Below, piece after piece: positions 14,961 through 35,567 of a stretch of DNA of 64,000 bases. The translations under genes and the position numbers were made by a program. The number at the start of each line of letters is the position of its first letter. Position 1 is the first letter of the stretch. The stretch is taken from the IMG/VR virus record IMGVR_UViG_3300005573_000004, positions 1 to 64,000 of that record. One strand, written 5' to 3'. Origin of the DNA: a virus. Under the pieces are notes generated by a model that was given only the letters and a program-made list of their open reading frames with translations, had not been told where the DNA came from and ran no database searches.

Positions 14961-14995
14961 AAGACACCTCCTTCAGATTAATTAGATTAATACTG

Positions 14996-15031
14996 TGTCA
15001 GCGTATTATTAATTCCCCGCTGACAAGGGAA
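14996..15031 (-). promoter_or_regulatory. H-type pseudoknot element (fully covaried variant) upstream of the MoxR gene
   Basis: TTCCC T TGTCAGCG GGGAA TTAATAATA CGCTGACA. Confidence 0.7.
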
Positions 15032-15032
15032 G

Positions 15033-15061
15033 ATTTTAATATAATTTTACTGCAATGTCAA
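15033..15061 (-). promoter_or_regulatory. sigma70-type promoter TTGACA-N17-TAAAAT
   Basis: Near-consensus hexamers with 17-bp spacer. Confidence 0.65.
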
Positions 15062-16150: not shown

Positions 16151-16564
16151 TTAGTATTCACGGAAACGAACGAATTTAAATTCGCTCGTTTTAATTCCGT
16201 CTTTTTCCACAGCAATTCTTGCTGTGGTCGCTGCAACAGGAACTTTTCCCTGTGCGAGCAATTCATTTACAAGCATATGCGTCAAGGTATGTTCACCTTG
16301 AATCATAATATGCTTGTAATTATATTTATTTAATTTCTTTAATACTTTTTGAGCTAACTTTGTTACATCTTCCTTAGATGCCTCAGGTGGCACCATAGGA
16401 AAATGAATATCAACTATCTGGGATGCTACGTGAGGAGCATATCCCTCAGTAGCAATGCTGTATAATGCGTCCCTTTGTTCTTGGGACCATTTGTTGCTCG
16501 GGTGATTGCTTAAATTTATCGCAACCACCTTTAAATTGTGTTCTAATGTTAATTCTAATTCCAT
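16151..16564 (-). CDS. Csx20-like CRISPR-associated ring-nuclease homolog (candidate anti-type-III protein)
   Basis: INLSNHPS.KWS.EQ, FP.VPPEAS, IQGE.TLT..LV, PV.ATT.R, K.SEF.FVRFREY match my recollection of the Csx15/16/20 group. Confidence 0.72.
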   Translation of the reverse strand: MELELTLEHNLKVVAINLSNHPSNKWSQEQRDALYSIATEGYAPHVASQIVDIHFPMVPPEASKEDVTKLAQKVLKKLNKYNYKHIMIQGEHTLTHMLVNELLAQGKVPVAATTARIAVEKDGIKTSEFKFVRFREY

Positions 16565-16629
16565 ATTACACCTCCTTTAGTTGCCTATGTATTATTTCCC
16601 CCATAGGCAGGGGAGAATTAAGAAATAGT

Positions 16630-17106
16630 TTATTTCAATCTTACGTCAGGAAGGATCTTAACTGTGCTGTCCATCTTGACAACACAATTAATCCCCCTCT
16701 TCTGCAACGCCGGTACTAAGAGGAACATTAGCACCGGAGTGCAGTCTATGAAGGCGATTTTATCCTCGCCTTCAGATATGTTTTGTAAATATATATTATC
16801 CATTCTTTTCAGGATATCATCAACAATATCCTGAAAGAAACTATAGTAATCCCCATTGGGATCACTATAGATAACTTCACTTTCCGTCTTTTCAGACGGA
16901 AAGTAATTATACTTTGTGAAGTTAATAATCTCTACGTCATCCCATTTGGGAGTGGCGTAGAACGTAGTTGCATTATCTATGATTATCACTCCTTCCTTTC
17001 CCGTGGTTGGATCTGCTTTATCCCCCATAAAGCAGTCCAAAATTTTTTCTTTCAGCTCTGGACTCCAGCGTTCTGCTGGAGTATTTGAAAAATTAAAAAG
17101 CTTCAT
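16630..17106 (-). CDS. divergent Csx15/Csx20-like paralog, copy 1
   Basis: LFNFSNTPAERWSPE aligns to INLSNHPSNKWSQE; C-terminal AFID...LVPALQKRGI.CV aligns to MIQG...LVNELLAQGKVPV. Confidence 0.5.
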   Translation of the reverse strand: MKLFNFSNTPAERWSPELKEKILDCFMGDKADPTTGKEGVIIIDNATTFYATPKWDDVEIINFTKYNYFPSEKTESEVIYSDPNGDYYSFFQDIVDDILKRMDNIYLQNISEGEDKIAFIDCTPVLMFLLVPALQKRGINCVVKMDSTVKILPDVRLK

Positions 17107-17161
17107 ATTACACCTCCTTTAGTTGCCTATGTATTATTTCCCCCATAGGCAGGGGAGAATT

Positions 17162-17464
17162 TTATTTATTATTTAATATTAATTTCTTGACAAACATATT
17201 AAGGGCATTTACTAAATACCCTTTTAAATGCATAATATAATATGTAGCGTATTCACCTCCTTCCGATCCGAAATCAACTTTCTTTACGAAGTAAAATGGA
17301 TCCTTCAGCTGTGCTGAAGAATCCTTTACTTCTACTACTGAATATGCAGGCCCTGGAATATATATCTCACAGGGACCTGTAAATCCTAACGCTTTGGAGC
17401 CTATAATATGCTCCAAAGATTTTTGTAACTCTTCTTTGCTTGAAAATTCTTTTAATTCTATCAT
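17162..17464 (-). CDS. small early protein, family B
   Basis: Near-identical to 18568..18870; RBS and pseudoknot leader. Confidence 0.7.
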   Translation of the reverse strand: MIELKEFSSKEELQKSLEHIIGSKALGFTGPCEIYIPGPAYSVVEVKDSSAQLKDPFYFVKKVDFGSEGGEYATYYIMHLKGYLVNALNMFVKKLILNNK

Positions 17465-17523
17465 ATTACACCTCCTTTAGTTGCCTATGTATTCTTATTT
17501 CCCCCATAGGCAGGGGAGAATTT

Positions 17524-17970
17524 TTATTCCCCAAATATTTTCTTCATCAAATCAGCCACCAACTTTTTGGTGGCTTCTTCATCGTGCTTAACCCACTTGA
17601 GTGAGTTAAGCCATTTTTTGTGGAGAGCTACTTTCTTCTCCACATGTTTCTTATTCTTGTCCCCATACTCTCCTTCGTGTATGGGGACTACAGAATAAAC
17701 ATCATTCGGTAAATCTTTTATATTGATATTTTCCGGAAGATGTCCGTCATCTACGACACCTCCGGAAAATGTTTTAATCTTACAATATTGTAATACAGAG
17801 AGATTACTCTTCTCTGTATCGTATACTTCCCCTTCTTCTGTGAAGAGGGGAAACTCTACCACATCGCCTGGAGCCCAGGCGATTACTACTTCTTCCCCCT
17901 GAATATATAACTCGTGAAGAAGTTTTTGAACTTCTTCAGAGTCATAATTGTTATTTTTTAATTTTATCAT
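17524..17970 (-). CDS. hypothetical acidic early protein
   Basis: RBS and pseudoknot leader. Confidence 0.7.
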   Translation of the reverse strand: MIKLKNNNYDSEEVQKLLHELYIQGEEVVIAWAPGDVVEFPLFTEEGEVYDTEKSNLSVLQYCKIKTFSGGVVDDGHLPENINIKDLPNDVYSVVPIHEGEYGDKNKKHVEKKVALHKKWLNSLKWVKHDEEATKKLVADLMKKIFGE

Positions 17971-18035
17971 AAGACACCTCCTACAAATTTGCCTATGTAT
18001 TATATTCCCCCATAGGCAGGGGAGAATTAAGAATA

Positions 18036-18512
18036 TTATTTTAACCTTACTTCTGGTAAAACTTTAAATGTGTTGTCAAAACGGACAACACATTTAATTT
18101 CTCTTCTCTGCAACGCCGGTACTAAGAAGAACATCAGTACCGGAGTGCAGTCTATGAAGGCGATTTTATCCTCGCCTTCAGATATGTTTTGTAAATATAT
18201 ATTATCCATTCTTTTCAGGATATCATCAACAATATCCTGAAAGAAACTATAGTAATCCCCATTGGGATCACTATAGATAACTTCACTTTCCGTCTTTTCA
18301 GACGGAAAGTAATTATACTTTGTGAAGTTAATAATCTCTACGTCATCCCATTTGGGAGTGGCGTAGAACGTAGTTGCATTATCTATGATTATCACTCCTT
18401 CCTTTCCCGTGGTTGGATCTGCTTTATCCCCCATAAAGCAGTCCAAAATTTTTTCTTTCAGCTCTGGACTCCAGCGTTCTGCTGGAGTATTTGAAAAATT
18501 AAAAAGCTTCAT
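18036..18512 (-). CDS. divergent Csx15/Csx20-like paralog, copy 2
   Basis: Identical to 16630..17106 except in the last ~30 aa. Confidence 0.5.
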   Translation of the reverse strand: MKLFNFSNTPAERWSPELKEKILDCFMGDKADPTTGKEGVIIIDNATTFYATPKWDDVEIINFTKYNYFPSEKTESEVIYSDPNGDYYSFFQDIVDDILKRMDNIYLQNISEGEDKIAFIDCTPVLMFFLVPALQRREIKCVVRFDNTFKVLPEVRLK

Positions 18513-18567
18513 ATTACACCTCCTTTAGTTGCCTATGTATTATTTCCCCCATAGGCAGGGGAGAATT

Positions 18568-18870
18568 TTATTTATTATTTAATATTAATTTCTTGACAAA
18601 CATATTAAGGGCATTTACTAAATACCCTTTTAAATGCATAATATAATATGTAGCGTATTCACCTCCTTCCGATCCGAAATCAACTTTCTTTACGAAGTAA
18701 AATGGATCCTTCAGCTGTGCTGAAGAATCCTTTACTTCTACTACTGAATATGCAGGCCCTGGAATATATATCTCACAGGGACCTGTAAATCCTAACGCTT
18801 TGGAGCCTATAATATGCTCCAAAGATTTTTGTAACTCTTCAACTGTGTTAAATTCTTTTAATTCTATCAT
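18568..18870 (-). CDS. small early protein, family B
   Basis: Duplicate of 17162..17464, offset 1406 bp. Confidence 0.7.
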   Translation of the reverse strand: MIELKEFNTVEELQKSLEHIIGSKALGFTGPCEIYIPGPAYSVVEVKDSSAQLKDPFYFVKKVDFGSEGGEYATYYIMHLKGYLVNALNMFVKKLILNNK

Positions 18871-18977
18871 ATTACACCTCCTTTTATAGCCTATGTATTA
18901 TTTCCCCCATAGGCAGGGGAGAATTTTTTTGCCTATAAATATTTTAGCTTCCTATAGGCAGGAAGCTAAACGAATTA

Positions 18978-19262
18978 TTAGAGATTACCCGCTAATAATT
19001 CGTTTAAAAATATCGTATTAGCATACTCTACGTTCCCTTTTACATAGATAATAGAGAACGTAACCTCTTCATAAGAGGCTTTCTTCACTATATAAAATTT
19101 ATGCTTCAATAATAAAGCTTCTTCATTTGCGTATTCTAATGCCCCGGCAATCCCTTGAACATAGATGCTTTCATCTTCCTTTTGAGAGGCGATAGCCTCT
19201 TTTAAGGAAGCTAGCAACTCTGGCATACCTGATACTTCTTTTACTTTAACATCTACATGCAT
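18978..19262 (-). CDS. small early protein, family B
   Basis: EL..SL...I.S, IY..G.A, LK..FY.VKK, I...KG motifs shared with 17162..17464. Confidence 0.65.
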   Translation of the reverse strand: MHVDVKVKEVSGMPELLASLKEAIASQKEDESIYVQGIAGALEYANEEALLLKHKFYIVKKASYEEVTFSIIYVKGNVEYANTIFLNELLAGNL

Positions 19263-19442
19263 ACGATGCCTCCTTTCATAGCCTATGTATTCTTATTTCC
19301 CCCATAGGCAGGGGAAAATTTAAATCCCCTTTAGGCGGGGTCAAAGAACTTTTGGAAGCGGAGAGTCTATGCTCCCCGCTTCCAAATAGCCTACGTATAT
19401 TTTAGCTCCCCCGTAGGCTGGGAGCTTAAGGAACTAATGTTC

Positions 19443-19859
19443 TTATTTTTTGGACATTAGTTCCTTAAGCTTTTTTTCCTCCTGCTCCCGCCTATTGGAG
19501 CGGTTTTTGTCAATTGCCTCTTTTAAAACTGGGAGGCTTGCCTCCCAGTTTATCCCTCCCCAACTATATTCATTAGCTAAGGCCATAATGGTCTTAGCTA
19601 CCTTGTCGGAATCAATACATTCCGACAAATTAGTAAAAATCCTGATATGGGGAACTCTGTTCCCCATATCCTCAAAAATCACCAAGGCGTTCCATGACAC
19701 CTTGGTGATTATCTCTTTCACCTTGGCGGGGGTATCAAGACCCCACCAAGTAAGATTTAAGAATTCCCCGCCTTTGACGAGGAATTCATTTCTTCTGGCA
19801 TATGGGTTTCCTCCCCATACGCCTTCCATTTGGTCTACCAATATAAATTTGGATTCCAT
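19443..19859 (-). CDS. hypothetical early protein
   Basis: RBS and pseudoknot leader. Confidence 0.7.
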   Translation of the reverse strand: MESKFILVDQMEGVWGGNPYARRNEFLVKGGEFLNLTWWGLDTPAKVKEIITKVSWNALVIFEDMGNRVPHIRIFTNLSECIDSDKVAKTIMALANEYSWGGINWEASLPVLKEAIDKNRSNRREQEEKKLKELMSKK

Positions 19860-20081
19860 AACACACCTCCTTTTATAGCCTATGTATTATATTCCCCCAT
19901 AGGCAGGGGAAGATTTTTCTTGCTTGTTGTTTTTTTACAAGGGGAGCAAGAGCCCCTTGCAAGCCTATATTTTAGGGGCTGGCTTGATGCCCCTTTGGGG
20001 GCGAGAATCAGGGACTTCTGCCCCCAAATAGCCTACGTATGTTTTAGCTCCCCGTAGGCGGGGAGCTACAAAATAACAGGG

Positions 20082-20261
20082 TTATTTCTTTATTTCAAAC
20101 CCTGTTATTTTGTATTTCTGAAGCTGGGCAGGAGCATCTGCCCAGCTCCATAATTTACCCGCAAGGGTAACAGATCCACCCCTGTGGGTAAAAACTATCT
20201 GTTGCACAGGCTTCCCTGTAGCCTGTGCCTTTTTAATGATTCTTAAATTATTCTTCGTCAT
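20082..20261 (-). CDS. 59-aa basic protein (not in ORF track), copy 1
   Basis: AAAGGAGGTGA RBS then MTKNNLRIIKKAQATGKPVQQIVFTHRGGSVTLAGKLWSWADAPAQLQKYKITGFEIKK*. Confidence 0.6.
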   Translation of the reverse strand: MTKNNLRIIKKAQATGKPVQQIVFTHRGGSVTLAGKLWSWADAPAQLQKYKITGFEIKK

Positions 20262-20446
20262 CTGTAATCACCTCCTTTCTTTTAATGAATAGTAGGCTCG
20301 GTTGCTCAAGCCGAGCCTACTTAAAACAAATCCCCTTTAGGCGGGGTCAAAAGAGCGTGTAGAGGCAGGGAGCATAAGCTCCCCTGCCTCTAAGAGCCTA
20401 CGTATATTTTGGCTCCCCGTAGGCGGGGAGTATAAATAAGGTCATT

Positions 20447-20764
20447 CTATTTTTTTAGAATGACCTTATTTATTAAGAATTCTATGGCACTATTTAAAAA
20501 TTCCGGCTTTGTAATAACTTCAAAGCCTGAGTCCATTATTTCATCATCCTGGTAGATCCTCTCTACCAGGAAATAATTTATTTTATCAGTCATTATTATT
20601 ATTTTATCTTTTTCCTCAGAGGAGGAAAAAGATAAAATTTTTTCCATACAGTCCTCTATGAGGACTGTATTATGTTCCCACCAACGGTGGGAATCTATCA
20701 GCCCAACCTTTTGGTTGGATAGCAAATCTTTAATGTCGTTTGAAACTTTTACTTTTACATACAT
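20447..20764 (-). CDS. small early protein (distant family B), copy 1
   Basis: Paralog of 21363..21680; RBS and pseudoknot leader. Confidence 0.7.
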   Translation of the reverse strand: MYVKVKVSNDIKDLLSNQKVGLIDSHRWWEHNTVLIEDCMEKILSFSSSEEKDKIIIMTDKINYFLVERIYQDDEIMDSGFEVITKPEFLNSAIEFLINKVILKK

Positions 20765-21004
20765 AATTACCTCCTATAAGTGCCTATGTATTATATTCCC
20801 CCATAGGCAGGGGAAATTTTTCCTACTCTAACCCGGTAGGACGGGCTTGCCTATGTTTTACAAGGAAGGCAAGCTCCTTGCAAGCCTTTTTAGTTTAGGG
20901 GCAGGCTTGTAGCCCCTTTGGGGGCGAGAATCAGGGACTTCTGCCCCCAAATAGCCTACGTATGTTTTAGCTCCCCGTAGGCGGGGAGCTACAAAATAAC
21001 AGGG

Positions 21005-21184
21005 TTATTTCTTTATTTCAAACCCTGTTATTTTGTATTTCTGAAGCTGGGCAGGAGCATCTGCCCAGCTCCATAATTTACCCGCAAGGGTAACAGATCC
21101 ACCCCTGTGGGTAAAAACTATCTGTTGCACAGGCTTCCCTGTAGCCTGTGCCTTTTTAATGATTCTTAAATTATTCTTCGTCAT
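21005..21184 (-). CDS. 59-aa basic protein, copy 2
   Basis: Duplicate of 20082..20261. Confidence 0.6.
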   Translation of the reverse strand: MTKNNLRIIKKAQATGKPVQQIVFTHRGGSVTLAGKLWSWADAPAQLQKYKITGFEIKK

Positions 21185-21362
21185 CTGTAATCACCTCCTT
21201 TCTTTTAATGAATAGTAGGCTCGGTTGCTCAAGCCGAACCTACAAAATCCCTTTTAAGCAGGGTCAAAGAACTTTTAGAAGCGGAGAGTCTATGCTCCCC
21301 GCCTCCAAATAGCCTACGTATGTTTATACTCCCCGTAGGCGGGGAGTATAAATAAGGTCATT

Positions 21363-21680
21363 CTATTTTTTTAGAATGACCTTATTTATTAGGAATTCTA
21401 AGGCACTTTCTAAAAACTCAGGCTTTGTAATAACTTCAAAGCCGGAATCAGTTTCTTCATTATCATCCTGGTAGATCCTCTCTACCAGGAAATAATTTAA
21501 TTTATCAGTCATTATTATTTTATCTTTATCCTCCTCTGAGTAGGAGGATAAAACTCCTCCATCGCAATCTACGTAGTATATTGTATTATGTTCCCACCAA
21601 CGGTTGGAACCTGTCATTCCAACCTTTTGGTTGGATAGCAAATCTTTAATGTCGTTTGAAACTTTTACTTTTACATACAT
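21363..21680 (-). CDS. small early protein (distant family B), copy 2
   Basis: Paralog of 20447..20764. Confidence 0.7.
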   Translation of the reverse strand: MYVKVKVSNDIKDLLSNQKVGMTGSNRWWEHNTIYYVDCDGGVLSSYSEEDKDKIIMTDKLNYFLVERIYQDDNEETDSGFEVITKPEFLESALEFLINKVILKK

Positions 21681-21867
21681 ATTACACCTCCTTTTATAGC
21701 CTATGTATTATATTCCCCCATAGGCAGGGGAGAATTTTTTCTTGCTTTTTGTTTTTACAAGGGGAGCAAGAGCCCCTTGAGAGTCTATATTTTATGGAGC
21801 GGACTCAACGCTCCATTTTTTTTTATCACCTCCTTTCTTTATGCTTCCTTGCAAAAGCAAGGAAGCA

Positions 21868-21980
21868 TTTATTATAATATATAGATAATATATTATATTA
21901 TTATAATATATTATCTATATATTATCTATATATTATATTATTATAATATTATATTATTATAATATTATTATTATTTTAAT
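21868..21980. repeat. almost pure A/T, partly palindromic tract
   Basis: TATTATATTATTATAA-type repeats with only a few G/C. Confidence 0.8.
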
Positions 21981-22052
21981 TCTCATAAGAGAAGAAGAAA
22001 GAGTTGATGATGGCCGTAGAATCCGCTATATATCCCCTTCAAAACCAGGAGA

Positions 22053-22252
22053 ATTTTGGAATTTAGGGTCCCCTGGAACCCAAAATTTTCTATAGGAAAA
22101 ATTTTTGGAATTTAGGGTCCCCTGGAACCCAAAATTTTCTATAGGAAAAATTTTTGGAATTTAGGGTCCCCTTTAACCTAAAAATTTCTATAGGAAAAAT
22201 TTTAGGGTCCCCCTGAACCGAAAATTTTCTATAGGAAAAATTTTTGGAATTT
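22053..22252. repeat. four tandem ~49-bp repeats
   Basis: GGGTCCCC cores at 22066, 22115, 22164, 22205, each followed by AAAA(T/A)TTTCTATAGGAAAAATTTT. Confidence 0.9.
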
Positions 22253-22275: not shown

Positions 22276-22347
22276 CGTGAATACTGTGAATACTGTGAAT
22301 ACTGTGGATAATGTGTATAATGTGTATAATGTGAATAATGTGAATAA
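22276..22347 (-). promoter_or_regulatory. head-to-tail DnaA-box array
   Basis: TTATCCACA (22303-22311), TTATACACA x2, TTATTCACA x2, plus three degenerate boxes, all abutting at 9-bp period. Confidence 0.75.
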
Positions 22348-22407: not shown

Positions 22408-22452
22408 ATAAAAAAGCCGTTAACCAGCCTATTTCACACTGATTAACGGCTT
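22408..22452 (-). terminator. intrinsic terminator
   Basis: AAGCCGTTAA...TTAACGGCTT stem followed by a T tract on the minus strand, after 22480..22761. Confidence 0.7.
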
Positions 22453-23472: not shown

Positions 23473-23496
23473 CTCTATTTTTTTAAAATTTTTTAA

Positions 23497-23531
23497 GCCT
23501 ACGTATATTTTTTCTCCCCGTAGGCTGGGAG
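23497..23531 (-). promoter_or_regulatory. type-B pseudoknot element upstream of speH
   Basis: CTCCC A GCCTACG GGGAG AAAAAATATA CGTAGGC. Confidence 0.75.
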
Positions 23532-32445: not shown

Positions 32446-34479
32446 CTAATTCAAAACTACTACACTTGATACGCCATTTTCTTTTTTTACCAAAAGTGAA
32501 TTATTAAACTCATAGGCAAAATCTGGAAAATGCGTTATTAAAAATATTTGGAATTGCCCAGATATACTTTTTAACATACTGGCAACAAATTCACGATATG
32601 GTTCGTCTAGGTCCTTTATACCTTCATCTACTATCAAATATTGAAAATTATATTTATTTGCGACCAACGTAGTTAAAGCTAAACGTAACGCAAAATTCAC
32701 TAAAACAAATTCAGCTCCCGATAATTCATCTAATTCACAAACTTCTTTATATTGATTAACTACCATAGTGTCAAAAACAGGTATAGTACCTTCAGAAGAT
32801 TTCTTAGACTTTTCAAATTGAAAAAATACTGATTTACCCAAACGAGTTAAATAAGAATTAGCTAAAATTGTTATCTCTTCTAATGCTTCAGAAATAAGAG
32901 CCTTTTGTATTCCATTTATAGATAAAATATTTGCACTATGTGTAGTTAAACTTTGAGCTTTTGCATATTGCTGTATTTCAGAATCTAATTGTACTATTTG
33001 ATCCTTTATAGTTAATATGTTTGCTTGCATATTTTCAATTTTCATAATATTCCTTTGTAAATCTTCAATTTCTGTTTTAAGTATATCAATAGATGCATAT
33101 AATTCTTTTAATTGATCTGGATTGCTTCCTTGAAGTAGTTTCTCAGTATCTTCTAATTGTTTTTTATTAAATGCTAATTCCTGTTGTTCTTTCTCACATT
33201 GTTTAGTTAATAATTGATTTATAGATTCTAATTGATTTATTTTTCCTTCTAATTCTGTTTGAGTCCTTATATTTTCATTATAAATAGCTATTTGCTTATT
33301 CATTTCATCTACCTGTTTAGCTAAATTTGAACGAATATCTATTAAATTATTATATTCTTCTCCAAGCTTTTGATAAGTATTATTCATTGAAGCTATCTCA
33401 CCATTAAGATGTTTTTCCAATTCTGACTTATATGAGTCGTCCATAACTCGCCTACAAAAAGGACACATATTCTGTTGTAAAATTAATGGTTTCTTTCTTT
33501 CAGCCTCTCTAATCTGGTCCTCTATCATTTTCATTTCCTGTTGCTTTGCAGCTACAGTTTTTTCTGCAGATAAAAAACTACCCAGTAAATTCTTTTTATA
33601 ATTTTCATCAATAGGGGTGACTCTATGCTTAATTAAATCCTCTAGAATTGGTTTATATTTTTGTAATTGGGCATTATTGTCTGCTAAAGTTTTATTTGCA
33701 TTCTCTAATGATTCGGTTAATGTTTTAATTTTTTTAATGATTTCTTCCTTTTTATTTAATAAAAGTTCTGTTTGTTTATTAGCTTCTAAAAGCTGCTGTT
33801 TCTCTTTTAGCATAGATTGTTTCAAAGAAAGTTGCTGTTGTAATTGTTCAATATCACTTTTAGATAATGCTTCTTGAATAGAAGCAAGTTGCATTTCTAA
33901 TATTTCTTTTTGCTGTTTACTTTTAGATCCATAATCAACGATTAGTTTAGTTAAATTCTTAGCTACTTGATGGTATGTTTCCCATTGTTTTATTTCCATA
34001 AGTGACATTATGAAATCTGTTTTAACTTGTTTCGGTGCATTACCAAAAGCATCGGAAAAATGTTGGCTTTGATAGATAGTATATTCATAAAGTTTACGGT
34101 CTATACCTAATAAATCATACATATATCTTTCAACTTCTGTTTTTTGTTGAGAAATCAATTGTCCGTCTTTATATAAAGACGGTTTATAATCACTATTAGT
34201 AAATTCTTTTATAATATTATAAATATGACCATTATGTTCAAAAGTTAAGGATGCCTTACCTTCCGTCGCTCCTCTACGTAATCTATGTTTACGTTTTGTA
34301 AATAAACAATAATCTATACCCTTAAATAAGGTTGATTTTCCAGCCTCATTTGAATGCTTTTCAGATCCCCTATCTAAATTTATACCTTTAATCAAGACTG
34401 GTGAGCCTAATTGAGTGAAATCTATATATGTATTGGCATGTGCCATAAAATTTTTTAATTCTAAGTTAAGTAATCTCAT
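32446..34479 (-). CDS. sbcC: SbcC/Rad50-like ATPase
   Basis: NEAGKST Walker A, coiled coil with CPFC hook, LSGAE signature, LIVDE. Confidence 0.9.
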   Translation of the reverse strand: MRLLNLELKNFMAHANTYIDFTQLGSPVLIKGINLDRGSEKHSNEAGKSTLFKGIDYCLFTKRKHRLRRGATEGKASLTFEHNGHIYNIIKEFTNSDYKPSLYKDGQLISQQKTEVERYMYDLLGIDRKLYEYTIYQSQHFSDAFGNAPKQVKTDFIMSLMEIKQWETYHQVAKNLTKLIVDYGSKSKQQKEILEMQLASIQEALSKSDIEQLQQQLSLKQSMLKEKQQLLEANKQTELLLNKKEEIIKKIKTLTESLENANKTLADNNAQLQKYKPILEDLIKHRVTPIDENYKKNLLGSFLSAEKTVAAKQQEMKMIEDQIREAERKKPLILQQNMCPFCRRVMDDSYKSELEKHLNGEIASMNNTYQKLGEEYNNLIDIRSNLAKQVDEMNKQIAIYNENIRTQTELEGKINQLESINQLLTKQCEKEQQELAFNKKQLEDTEKLLQGSNPDQLKELYASIDILKTEIEDLQRNIMKIENMQANILTIKDQIVQLDSEIQQYAKAQSLTTHSANILSINGIQKALISEALEEITILANSYLTRLGKSVFFQFEKSKKSSEGTIPVFDTMVVNQYKEVCELDELSGAEFVLVNFALRLALTTLVANKYNFQYLIVDEGIKDLDEPYREFVASMLKSISGQFQIFLITHFPDFAYEFNNSLLVKKENGVSSVVVLN

Positions 34480-35567
34480 GGTTTTAATCCTAAAATTGGA
34501 ATTTCAAATGGAGAAGTTTCCATTTTTATTTTCTCAGAAACTATATCTTCACAAATAGATAATATGGCTTTATGTTCAGGAACTAAATTGTTTCTTTTAA
34601 CATAATCATCTATATAATTTTCTAAAGTCACTTTTTGTCTCCTAACAAATTCAGGAGCTGATGTATAAGAAATCGGTTTAAAGTTCTTTATTATACGAAC
34701 AGGATACCCTTTCGCTTCTAATTCTTTTTGAAGTTTATCCAATTCTGGAACTAAACTAACATCTATATCTTTTGCTATGATTTTGACCATAGTTCCTGGA
34801 ACAGATATTTTTGACTGATCAAATGTTTCAAAATCAAACACTTGTATAGGTCTAGCATTTGTGGGTATAAACCCTACATTTCCTGAATCATACAAAGAAA
34901 TATATTTTGTAGGTTCTTCTTCTCCCCAATCAGTCCTATAAGGTGAACCGCTATAATAAAAGTTTCCTATAATCTGTCCTCCAGTATGGATATGGCCTAT
35001 TGCTCCATATTTTACTTTGGATAAACTTTGTAACCATCCTGATGAAACAGTAAATTCAGATGAAGATGGAGTTATCGCAGAGAACTCATTAACCCAAAGA
35101 TGTCCTATTAAATATAATTCATTTCCTTTATAATCATCGTGAAGTCTTTGAATTGTATTAAGACAAACATCTTTTGCGTGGTATTTATATGGTATCACAA
35201 GAATATCTATGTCTTTTACTCTATATAAACCTTCTTCATCAAAAATAAAAAGATTTTGTAAGTTTAAATTTTTTAAAGGTTTAAGTGTGTGATGTGCTTC
35301 TTCATTATCAGGTTGGTCATGATTTCCAGGTATCATAACAATTGTACACCCAAGATCTAATAATTGTTTTAAGAATATATGAGCCAATGAATATTCCGTA
35401 GGAGTTGGTTCTTTTTTATCAAACAGATCCCCAGCAAAAAATATATATTCTGGTTGGTATTGTTTTACTACATCAAGAATAAAACGTAATTGTCCTAATA
35501 AATCGTATTTATATCTGTCATCACTCTTTAATTTAATATGTAAATCTGCAAAATGAAGTATTTTCAT
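34476..35567 (-). CDS. sbcD: SbcD/Mre11-like nuclease
   Basis: FADLH, AGDLFD, GNHD, GHIH, YSGSP. Confidence 0.92.
   Translation of the reverse strand: MKILHFADLHIKLKSDDRYKYDLLGQLRFILDVVKQYQPEYIFFAGDLFDKKEPTPTEYSLAHIFLKQLLDLGCTIVMIPGNHDQPDNEEAHHTLKPLKNLNLQNLFIFDEEGLYRVKDIDILVIPYKYHAKDVCLNTIQRLHDDYKGNELYLIGHLWVNEFSAITPSSSEFTVSSGWLQSLSKVKYGAIGHIHTGGQIIGNFYYSGSPYRTDWGEEEPTKYISLYDSGNVGFIPTNARPIQVFDFETFDQSKISVPGTMVKIIAKDIDVSLVPELDKLQKELEAKGYPVRIIKNFKPISYTSAPEFVRRQKVTLENYIDDYVKRNNLVPEHKAILSICEDIVSEKIKMETSPFEIPILGLKP

Follow-up and report, generated by a model that had tools for sequence, protein, structure and literature searches.

Stop-spanning hairpins as possible 3' caps in a structured early operon of a hot-spring phage

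What purpose is served by the perfect hairpins that lie across the stop codons of some, though only some, genes in the early array of this phage? The window analysed here is a stretch of 64,000 nucleotides (positions 1 to 64,000 of the IMG/VR record IMGVR_UViG_3300005573_000004), and its array genes are all on the minus strand. A stop-spanning hairpin is present in only 6 of the 12 cassettes of the window. An earlier note, made from the letters alone, had listed six inverted repeats here, and all six are perfect, with stems of 15–18 bp. The hairpin of the 94-aa gene is at 18967–19006 (arms 18967–18981 and 18992–19006, 15 bp, loop of 10), and that of the 138-aa gene is at 19423–19471 (arms 19423–19440 and 19454–19471, 18 bp, loop of 13 with the stop codon inside it). 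The 59-aa gene has one at 20067–20114 (arms 20067–20083 and 20098–20114, 17 bp, loop of 14), which is duplicated at 20990–21037 (arms 20990–21006 and 21021–21037, again 17 bp and a loop of 14). The 105-aa gene also has two copies: copy a at 20432–20473 (arms 20432–20449 and 20456–20473, 18 bp, loop of 6, the stop codon being the first three nucleotides of the 3' arm) and copy b at 21348–21389 (arms 21348–21365 and 21372–21389, 18 bp, loop of 6). The arms of copies a and b are identical, but identity between their ORF bodies is only 78%. A 923-bp tandem duplication contains the 59-aa/105-aa cassette pair, and the six hairpins represent four independent sequences.

The 5' arm, in minus-strand sense, consists of the gene's own last codons, as the earlier note had it, and ends the 94-, 138-, 59- and 105-aa ORFs. 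In the six window hairpins the stop codon is found in the loop or at the very start of the 3' arm; across the 16 stems tabulated from the window and related loci it is always in the loop or the 3' arm, at positions that range from the last base of the 5' arm to 9 nt into the 3' arm. The arms share no common motif, have no extrahelical bases and pair perfectly. In the whole 149,961-bp genome there are eight inverted repeats with perfect arms of at least 15 bp and a loop of 3–20, all of them at 18.9–21.9 kb; ten shuffles of the genome yielded none. The stems are predicted to stay folded up to about 75–85°C, and the sequence was found in three hot-spring DNA runs; no RNA run was listed among the runs that hold it.

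Intrinsic (Rho-independent) terminators were considered and rejected: the stems are A/U-rich, a B module begins where a U-run would be expected, and a terminator consensus scan listed none of the six hairpins. The description of the stems as gene-specific and lacking a U-tract was borne out, as no U-run follows any of them. There is no canonical terminator inside the window's array. One at 22430–22414 is upstream of the leader region, an AT-rich, promoter-like stretch at the head of the array (21860–22000, minus strand, with promoter-like sites at 21928 and 21986).

The pseudoknot said to adjoin each stem is there, and is backed by covariation: helix 1 of a B-type module begins right at or near the stem end. 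These modules, all on the minus strand, are at 18929–18970 after the 94-aa hairpin (a variant, B', in which S1 and S2 are changed), 19387–19430 after the 138-aa hairpin (4 nt are common to the knot and the 3' arm), 20029–20070 and 20952–20993 after the two 59-aa copies, and 20394–20435 and 21310–21351 after copies a and b of the 105-aa hairpin. In the last of these, S1 reaches 13 bp and runs into the hairpin arm; stem 1 is otherwise 7–9 bp. It starts 0–1 nt past the hairpin or overlaps the hairpin's last bases, by 2–5 nt in several copies. Over 23 copies of modules A and B, 92.7% of cells are paired in the proposed fold, versus 30–55% with the partners slid; 9 of the 14 pairs change on both sides, and none of 500 shuffles reached the observed score. 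This pattern argues that both modules form an H-type RNA pseudoknot, two interleaved helices kept by compensatory change. Rfam gave only a tRNA elsewhere in the sequence at gathering score, plus weak hairpin-like noise at E up to 1, and when IMG/VR was scanned for the patterns of the A and B cores, only chance single hits without the downstream partner came up. Two further module assignments were rejected: module H as a promoter, for the spacing of its promoter-like hexamers varies from 15 to 19 nt in our own reading of the copies, and module C as a canonical terminator, for its upstream U-run and downstream A-run merely lengthen the stem.

The presence of a stop-spanning stem goes with the module that comes next. 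The window was compared with seven related loci (L020–L025 and L027). All 22 junctions that lead into a B or C module had a stem of 14–18 bp, and none of the 16 that lead into an A pseudoknot or a plain SD (ribosome-binding site) did (Fisher p = 4e-11, uncorrected for shared ancestry – the relatives come from a few hot-spring samples and are closely akin, and the junction counts are thus not independent). The cassette layout proposed in the earlier note, knot, ribosome-binding site, ORF, hairpin and knot, therefore holds where a B or C module comes next and fails where an A knot follows directly, with no stop-spanning stem. Ten gene families have a stem of their own, and some of them change state with their neighbour. 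The stem of the 94-aa gene is 15 bp in the window, versus only a 7-bp core, predicted to melt near 60°C, in L021 and L024, where an A knot follows. The 132-aa family has no stem in L022 and one of 14 bp in L027, and Csx20-like genes are stemless at the end of the array but have a stem of 15–18 bp ahead of B or C. About 30 nt beyond the stem of L027, after a degenerate B, comes a canonical terminator of stem plus U-run. What would be expected of a 3' stabiliser, a stable stem at the 3' end of a cistron and at a segment boundary, is what the 22 of 22 against 0 of 16 junctions and the predicted 75–85°C describe.

Searches for more distant relatives of the array returned little. A blastn search of 6.4 kb against the phage record database gave no match, and related-locus searches with the 138-aa protein and with the neighbouring ATPase found no relatives.

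Among the relatives that are available, the downstream arm changes along with the end of the ORF, which is the comparison the earlier note had proposed. In the 105-aa family, two pairs of the stem are changed on both sides (in L024 and L025), and both mirror synonymous codon changes. The 59-aa family has one compensatory pair change, in L021. In the Csx20-like stem two compensatory pairs separate L020 from L024 and a third separates L020 from L025, and the register is shifted in L023, in a family whose divergence reaches a dS of 1.4; stems stay perfect across dS above 1. In one of the comparisons, 8 of 11 departures from the commonest pair are G-U wobbles. Among the 134 distinct array stems of at least 10 bp, G-U outnumbers A-C by 64 to 35 (p = 0.005), while for the gene-end stems alone the numbers are only 4 and about 2–3. 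This bias is moderate; together with the wobble-only changes, it points to sense RNA rather than DNA as the level at which the pairing matters.

The stems could also be neutral by-products, if frequent template switching at inverted repeats perfects and lengthens small palindromes wherever the downstream arm is unconstrained. That template switching can turn imperfect inverted repeats into perfect ones is documented (PMC5941160, PMC7202029). Stems saturate the array, and in one lineage a core of 7 bp has grown to 15 bp. Such a process would leave unexplained the strict presence of stems before B and C and their absence before A, the G-U bias, and the weaker structure of the homologous genes in other phages, and it does not fit the stems inside genes that are kept by compensatory changes that alter amino acids. 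It is a highly improbable account of the hairpins.

A second possibility is that the hairpins act in DNA with no RNA role, as recombination scars or recognition structures of cassette exchange in the manner of PeSL or attC. The array does appear to be plastic. The window has its cassettes in another order than L020, L021 and L024, and there are tandem duplications of cassettes; the breaks between identity blocks fall within B or just after it, the 5' half of B moving together with the stem and gene upstream of it and the 3' half with the following sequence. In one copy stem 1 of B extends into the flanking arm, and stems recur independently within one gene family. Against a DNA-level role are the lack of a conserved core motif and of extrahelical bases in the arms, the A junctions, which recombine too yet are stemless, the signs of sense RNA given by the wobble pairs, and the perfection of the stems across dS above 1. 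The phage has neither a tyrosine recombinase nor a reverse transcriptase: PF00589 had no match anywhere in the complete genome of 150 kb, whereas each of the 14 control genomes has one. We regard cassette exchange as an unlikely reason for the stems.

The closest parallel to the plasticity is with the PeSL cassettes (promoter-early stem-loops) of T4-type phages (PMC2839356, PMC4122927). In both, conserved regulatory modules lie between small orphan early genes in a plastic region, and the modules are exchange points at which genes are shuffled, deleted and duplicated – here the inter-ORF modules are conserved, gene order differs, and identity blocks break at the modules. The stem-loop itself is another matter. 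That of PeSL is inside the conserved module and is a terminator beside a strong sigma-70 promoter, whereas the array stem is gene-specific, half coding and without a U-run, the conserved modules are chains of H-type pseudoknots, and the promoter-like hexamers of module H are 15–19 nt apart. Integron attC sites also place a cassette-specific inverted repeat at the 3' end of a gene cassette, sometimes over the stop codon, but they have conserved core sites (R''/L''-L'/R') and extrahelical bases and need the IntI integrase, all of which are absent here. Origins of the attC, retroelement and DGR type were rejected, with no core motif, no integrase and no reverse transcriptase.

RNase III sites were one of the roles put forward in the earlier note, and the stems could be places where RNase III, or another double-strand RNase, cuts the early polycistronic RNA into units or starts its decay. 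The models for this are the early R sites of phage T7 and the early RNA of SP82. RNase III is present in Firmicute hosts, and these process the early RNAs of phages. The stems are at intercistronic boundaries of an early operon, and perfect duplexes of 14–18 bp that may stack on stem 1 of B (7–9 bp) would give more than two helical turns. The geometry stands against it: with a coding 5' arm and the stop in the loop or 3' arm in 16 of 16 stems, a cut through both strands would sever the ORF 5' of its stop and leave non-stop mRNAs. Sites of the T7 early type are duplexes of about two helical turns, wholly between cistrons, that leave the upstream cistron intact, with internal loops that limit the cut to one strand, and the perfect, half-coding stems here are not of that form. 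Nor was an RNase III gene found in the phage. Maturation by RNase III is thus disfavoured, and quite unlikely.

The same position of the stop codon could make the hairpin a sensor of translation. A ribosome finishing the ORF would open the stem, free the 3' arm and alter the fold of B and the spacer, and the expression or stability of the next segment would then depend on translation of the one upstream. As the stop falls no earlier than the last base of the 5' arm and no later than 9 nt into the 3' arm, termination and the stem are mutually exclusive, and the overlap of 2–5 nt between the 3' arm and stem 1 of B in several copies sets up competition. Against this, the 3' arms are gene-specific and lack any conserved downstream sequence with which to pair instead, no second fold was detected, and the next start codon is 200–280 nt beyond the stem, behind several more autonomous structures. 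Such a sensor seems very unlikely.

Of the readings considered, the '3' protector' suggestion of the earlier note remains the most coherent, as judged from sequence comparison. The hairpins are tentatively viewed as selected sense-RNA caps at the 3' ends of mRNA segments, made by local inverted duplication, a possibility that stands a little below even. Wherever a long structured spacer (module B or C onward) punctuates the operon, the 3' end of the cistron would be capped: the last 14–18 nt of the ORF would pair with an inverted copy directly past the stop, and the helix would continue, across a gap of 0–3 nt, into stem 1 of B or hairpin C, so that the coding end and the spacer become one folded block. 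Once the polycistronic RNA has been cut, or has ended, within the spacer, this block could guard the end of the ORF against 3'-to-5' exonucleases and single-strand endonucleases. A cap may also free the folding of the spacer modules from the influence of whichever gene lies upstream, and the overall role would be selective RNA processing and stabilisation, tuned for high temperature. Local inverted duplication, or template switching, would create the downstream arm from the coding one and keep it perfect – copying would run from the coding to the non-coding arm because protein function fixes the coding one. Three points weigh against caps. The genes at A junctions do without them, and protection is thus no general need of every cistron; a later hairpin (module C, or the terminator of L027), were transcripts to stop there, would already block exonucleases and make the cap redundant; and with the stop codon inside the stem, no ribosome can terminate without melting it.

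Intercistronic 3' stem-loops of selective RNA processing and stabilisation (e.g. PMC10667835) and the RNase III sites of T7 are similar to the putative caps in being stable stems at the 3' end of the upstream cistron, at a segment boundary of a polycistronic RNA. They differ in lying wholly in the spacer, in making no use of the gene's own codons and in having no need to follow the ORF through synonymous changes. A stem at the 3' end of an mRNA is nothing unusual; we found no description of a stem that borrows a gene's last codons, is rebuilt for each gene and follows its synonymous drift.

The stop-spanning stems are the terminal members of an operon-wide structure island of 5.8 kb (16200–21960, minus strand), in which the whole early array, ORFs and spacers together, folds far better than shuffled sequence. 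Its 180-nt windows have fold z scores of about −2 to −14.5, most below −4, while most flanking windows are at roughly 0 to −3. Ten A-type units of pseudoknot plus SD, with ten exact A cores, precede the island genes. The ORF bodies themselves are full of conserved hairpins, which the earlier note overlooked. The mRNA of the 138-aa orphan gene (19443–19859, minus strand, as are all of the following) is about 11 consecutive local hairpins (z = −10.8), and four hairpins cover most of the 59-aa orphan gene (20082–20261, with its copy at 21005–21184; z = −9.3; dN/dS 0.23–0.45). The 94-aa orphan gene (18978–19262) has a dN/dS of 0.20–0.34. The 105-aa orphan gene (20447–20764, paralogue at 21363–21680) belongs to a family with only three members among 5.8 billion proteins, and 10 compensatory pairs are found among the three sequences. 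Intragenic stems are kept via compensatory changes that alter amino acids, and homologous genes in other phages have much weaker structure.

Long inverted repeats in functional coding sequence, near-perfect and with protein and structure conserved together, are also found in the coding palindromes of Nematomorpha mitochondrial genes (PMC6649704). Those are in animal mitochondria and have two coding arms of up to 284 bp, whereas the stems here belong to a phage operon, are short and occur many to a gene, and in the terminal one only the first arm is coding.

Pfam, PHROGs and NCBIfam gave nothing credible for the 59-, 94-, 100-, 105-, 138- and 148-aa proteins. One cassette family, with several paralogues, resembles the Csx20 ring nuclease; a structure search gave middling matches only (best Z 6.6), enriched in CARF and SAVED sensors. 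The array likely carries anti-CRISPR genes, namely these Csx20-like ring nucleases. A wider and improbable reading is that the early operon is an armoured mRNA, in which hairpin-saturated ORFs, pseudoknot chains and stop-spanning caps evolved together, hiding anti-type-III-CRISPR transcripts from crRNA pairing and letting them survive single-strand RNases (Csm6/Csx1 type) switched on by cyclic oligoadenylate. The caps would then close the last single-stranded gap at the end of each ORF, and a nucleic-acid-level counter-defence would be layered on a protein-level one.

The putative caps are the visible tip of something rarer, a 5.8-kb coding operon whose RNA folds 4–18 standard deviations better than shuffled while its proteins are under purifying selection. 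Should that structure shield messages from defence RNases, phages would have a new layer of counter-defence, and heat-stable mRNAs could be designed by the same rule. Ten gene families, each seen with or without a stem according to the neighbouring module, make the array a clean natural system in which to ask how templated inverted duplication makes RNA structure and whether caps stabilise cistrons at high temperature. The Csx20-like family speaks for such a templated origin: its genes that have a stem are 2–3 codons longer than those without one, the extra residues and the stop being read from the loop and the 3' arm, with a 5'-arm codon supplying the stop as its reverse complement.

The virus record is complete (149,961 bp with direct terminal repeats, the window being its first 64 kb), and public reads place the phage DNA in hot-spring metagenomes. 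The G+C content is ca. 31%, rising to 37–39% at 14–22 kb, and every gene between 15.6 and 22 kb is on the minus strand. In the sense direction, a canonical terminator (22430–22414, minus strand) comes first, followed by an AT-rich, promoter-like leader (21860–22000, minus strand) and then by 12 small ORFs of 105, 59, 105, 59, 138, 94, 100, 158, 148, 100, 158 and 137 aa. All 12 have a strong ribosome-binding site, and 10 have upstream of them module A, an H-type pseudoknot with an SD sequence, the core of which occurs 10 times in the genome and only within the array.

An earlier note described perfect hairpins of 15–18 bp over stop codons in the array, each directly followed by a pseudoknot of type B. 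On recheck, all six of its inverted repeats were perfect – 18967–19006, 19423–19471, 20067–20114, 20432–20473, 20990–21037 and 21348–21389. As it had claimed, one arm consists of the gene’s own final codons; on the sense strand this is the 5’ arm, and the stop codon falls within the loop or at the start of the 3’ arm. No stem is followed by a U-run, and stem 1 of module B starts 0–1 nt later or overlaps the arm. The proposed cassette layout, with a hairpin at each gene end, holds for six of the 12 cassettes but not for the other six, which lack a stem. Owing to tandem duplication of the 59/105 cassette pair (20029–21389, period 923 bp), the six stems amount to four independent sequences; a second tandem segmental duplication, of the 158/100 pair, is at 16581–18570.

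There are eight perfect inverted repeats of at least 15 bp in the whole genome, all at 18.9–21.9 kb, and none in shuffled sequences. Stop-spanning stems of at least 11 bp were found in one of 150 ORFs in the rest of this genome and in two of ca. 230 ORFs across 14 viral loci, which were collected with a profile of one cassette protein and include L027, a locus with the same junction type and the source of one of the two stems. The sole other stop-spanning stem in the phage genome (14–15 bp) is outside the window at 133806–133838 (minus strand); the loop complements 7 nt of sequence that begin 17 nt further downstream, and the stem thereby also serves as stem 1 of a pseudoknot.

No close relatives were found in phage databases or IMG/VR, and six related loci (L020–L025) were recovered by scanning metagenome contigs once with a degenerate pattern. 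In junction counts that include L027, a stop-spanning stem of 14–18 bp is present at 22 of 22 junctions (one of them cut by a contig end) before module B or module C, the latter a hairpin, and at 0 of 16 where the gene is followed by module A or by a ribosome-binding site alone (Fisher p = 4e-11, shared ancestry not corrected for). Ten gene families have a stem of their own, and three families were seen both with and without one. The 94-aa gene has a 15 bp stem in the window, of which L021 and L024 have no more than a 7-bp core; the 132-aa family has a 14 bp stem in L027 and none in L022; and the 137/130-aa family is stemless at the array end, with 15–18 bp before B or C.

The earlier note had proposed comparing relatives for downstream arms that track synonymous changes, and they do: in the 105-aa family, the downstream arm mirrors two silent last-codon changes (aat to aac, gtc to gtt). 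One pair in the 59-aa family is altered on both sides in L021. In the 137/130-aa family, with dS of up to 1.4, each member has a near-perfect stem private to it. Compared with L020, L024 has two pairs altered in both arms and L025 has one. There are also three G-U wobbles, a single one in each of L020, L023 and L024, and one A-C mismatch, at a stop-codon base; the L023 stem is offset by a few bases. Stem-bearing members are 2–3 codons longer; the loop and 3’ arm encode their added residues and stop, as expected from an inverted copy of the gene end over the old stop. Template switching from the constrained coding arm would be the simplest way for the arm to arise and stay perfect (PMC5941160, PMC7202029). 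That the stems are a neutral by-product is considered very improbable.

The B pseudoknot also proved real. In an alignment of 23 copies of A and B, 92.7% of cells pair, against 30–55% with the partners slid; 9 of 14 pairs have two-sided changes, and the observed score was unmatched by any shuffle. The long spacers contain additional modules that share this pseudoknot architecture but differ in sequence. Two isolated pseudoknots are outside the array, at 23496–23531 and 14994–15036 (both minus strand). One is B-type, upstream of a SAM-decarboxylase-like gene; the other, upstream of an ATPase gene, is an A-type variant, also found in L021, with a stem 2 that is wholly different yet complementary.

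The best-fitting model for the junction dichotomy, which we infer tentatively, is that the stop-spanning stems are 3’ caps at the boundaries of a divided operon. Cistrons would stay joined at A junctions, and the long B and C spacers would be sites where the RNA divides or ends, the upstream ORF there being closed by a helix stacked on the first pseudoknot of the spacer. The stem would then be a 3’ cap as in selective RNA processing and stabilisation (PMC10667835). A stem enclosing a stop codon might instead act as a translation sensor, a role that seems improbable. The suggestion that the stems are RNase III sites fared poorly: since coding sequence forms one strand and the structure contains the stop, a two-strand cut would break the ORF ahead of its stop codon. 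No RNase III gene was found in the phage genome, and an RNase III or decay site is judged rather unlikely. The stems were rejected as terminators, being A/U-rich and without a U-run. In L027, a separate canonical terminator follows a degenerate B. At 841–900 in L027 and at 22414–22446 (minus strand) in the window is the same canonical terminator, with related stem sequence and a U-run; it closes a junction in the former and the operon upstream of the array in the latter. The stems were also rejected as attC sites – they lack a core motif and unpaired bases, and no tyrosine recombinase is encoded in the genome. No reverse transcriptase was found in the phage genome.

Cassette order varies among the loci. 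Blocks of identity have their breaks within B or immediately downstream of it, which means that the upstream gene takes its stem and the 5’ half of B along. This exchange is similar to the shuffling mediated by PeSLs in T4-type phages, for which a crossover in the loop of a stem-loop has been mapped (PMC2839356, PMC4122927). The two 105-aa copies have 78% protein identity, yet their final ca. 60 nt, including the stem, are identical, which indicates exchange inside the ORF. The stems could be a DNA-level by-product of exchange, though this is unlikely. Among array stems, G-U outnumbers A-C by 64 to 35 (p = 0.005), and wobbles make up 8 of the 11 departures from the commonest pair in the 59-aa family; both point to sense RNA rather than DNA.

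The stop-spanning stems are the last of many stems in the array. The 138-aa mRNA folds into about eleven local hairpins in series (z = −10.8) and the 59-aa mRNA into four (z = −9.3), compared to z = −1.0 and +0.9 for two control genes. Windows of 180 nt across 16.2–21.96 kb have z of ca. −2 to −14.5, most below −4, while nearly all flanking windows are at ca. +2 to −3, with one at −4.0. Distinct stems of at least 10 bp number 134 in ca. 21 kb of arrays and 12 in 41 kb of control sequence from the same phage. The array ORFs are real genes, with dN/dS of 0.15–0.45 when one nearly identical pair is left out, and their intragenic stems are kept through compensatory changes (ten pairs among three 105-aa sequences). 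A perfect 17-bp hairpin is within the 105-aa coding sequence at 20601–20638 (minus strand), with a counterpart at ca. 21520–21560; in the paralogue and in the L024 orthologue, this position is also occupied by a stem, but of other sequence, and the peptide is altered accordingly. Whole-ORF folds have z of −11 to −18 in the hot-spring lineage, compared to −2.5 to −7.8 for homologues of the same protein in other phages, and the stems are predicted to be stable to 75–85 °C.

Csx20 belongs to type III CRISPR loci. All six members of the 137/130-aa family tested matched the full NCBIfam CAS_Csx20 profile (E 3e-12, score below the curated cut-off). The AF2 model has a Rossmann-like fold, and SAVED and CARF cyclic-nucleotide sensors are among its best structural matches (Z 5–6.6). 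The 158-aa family is related but diverged (hhalign 96.9%). Together these cassette genes are at 16151–16564, 16630–17106 and 18036–18512 (minus strand), with paralogues in L020–L025; homologues are on 14 other viral contigs. Csx20 is a confirmed cA4 ring nuclease known from four cultured-phage genomes (PMC12409355). From its sequence match and modelled fold, the 137/130-aa family is likely a multi-copy anti-CRISPR, and the match together with the ring-nuclease activity of Csx20 makes the array probably an anti-type-III-CRISPR operon. This probable role prompted a further reading, thought unlikely, that the extreme RNA structure of the array shields its messages from crRNA pairing and cOA-activated single-strand RNases.

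Three repeat features upstream of the array could be an origin, packaging site or operator region: an AT-rich block (21869–21978) with a 24-bp perfect palindrome at 21874–21925, a 49-bp direct repeat in 4.2 copies (22054–22252) and a 9-bp repeat in 7.9 copies (22277–22347). For an ORF at 32446–34479 (minus strand), the PHROG match carries the annotation of an SbcC-like subunit of a palindrome-specific endonuclease, and the adjacent 363-aa ORF (34476–35567, minus strand) as its SbcD partner is only a guess. The match is of interest given how densely inverted repeats fill the early array of this genome.
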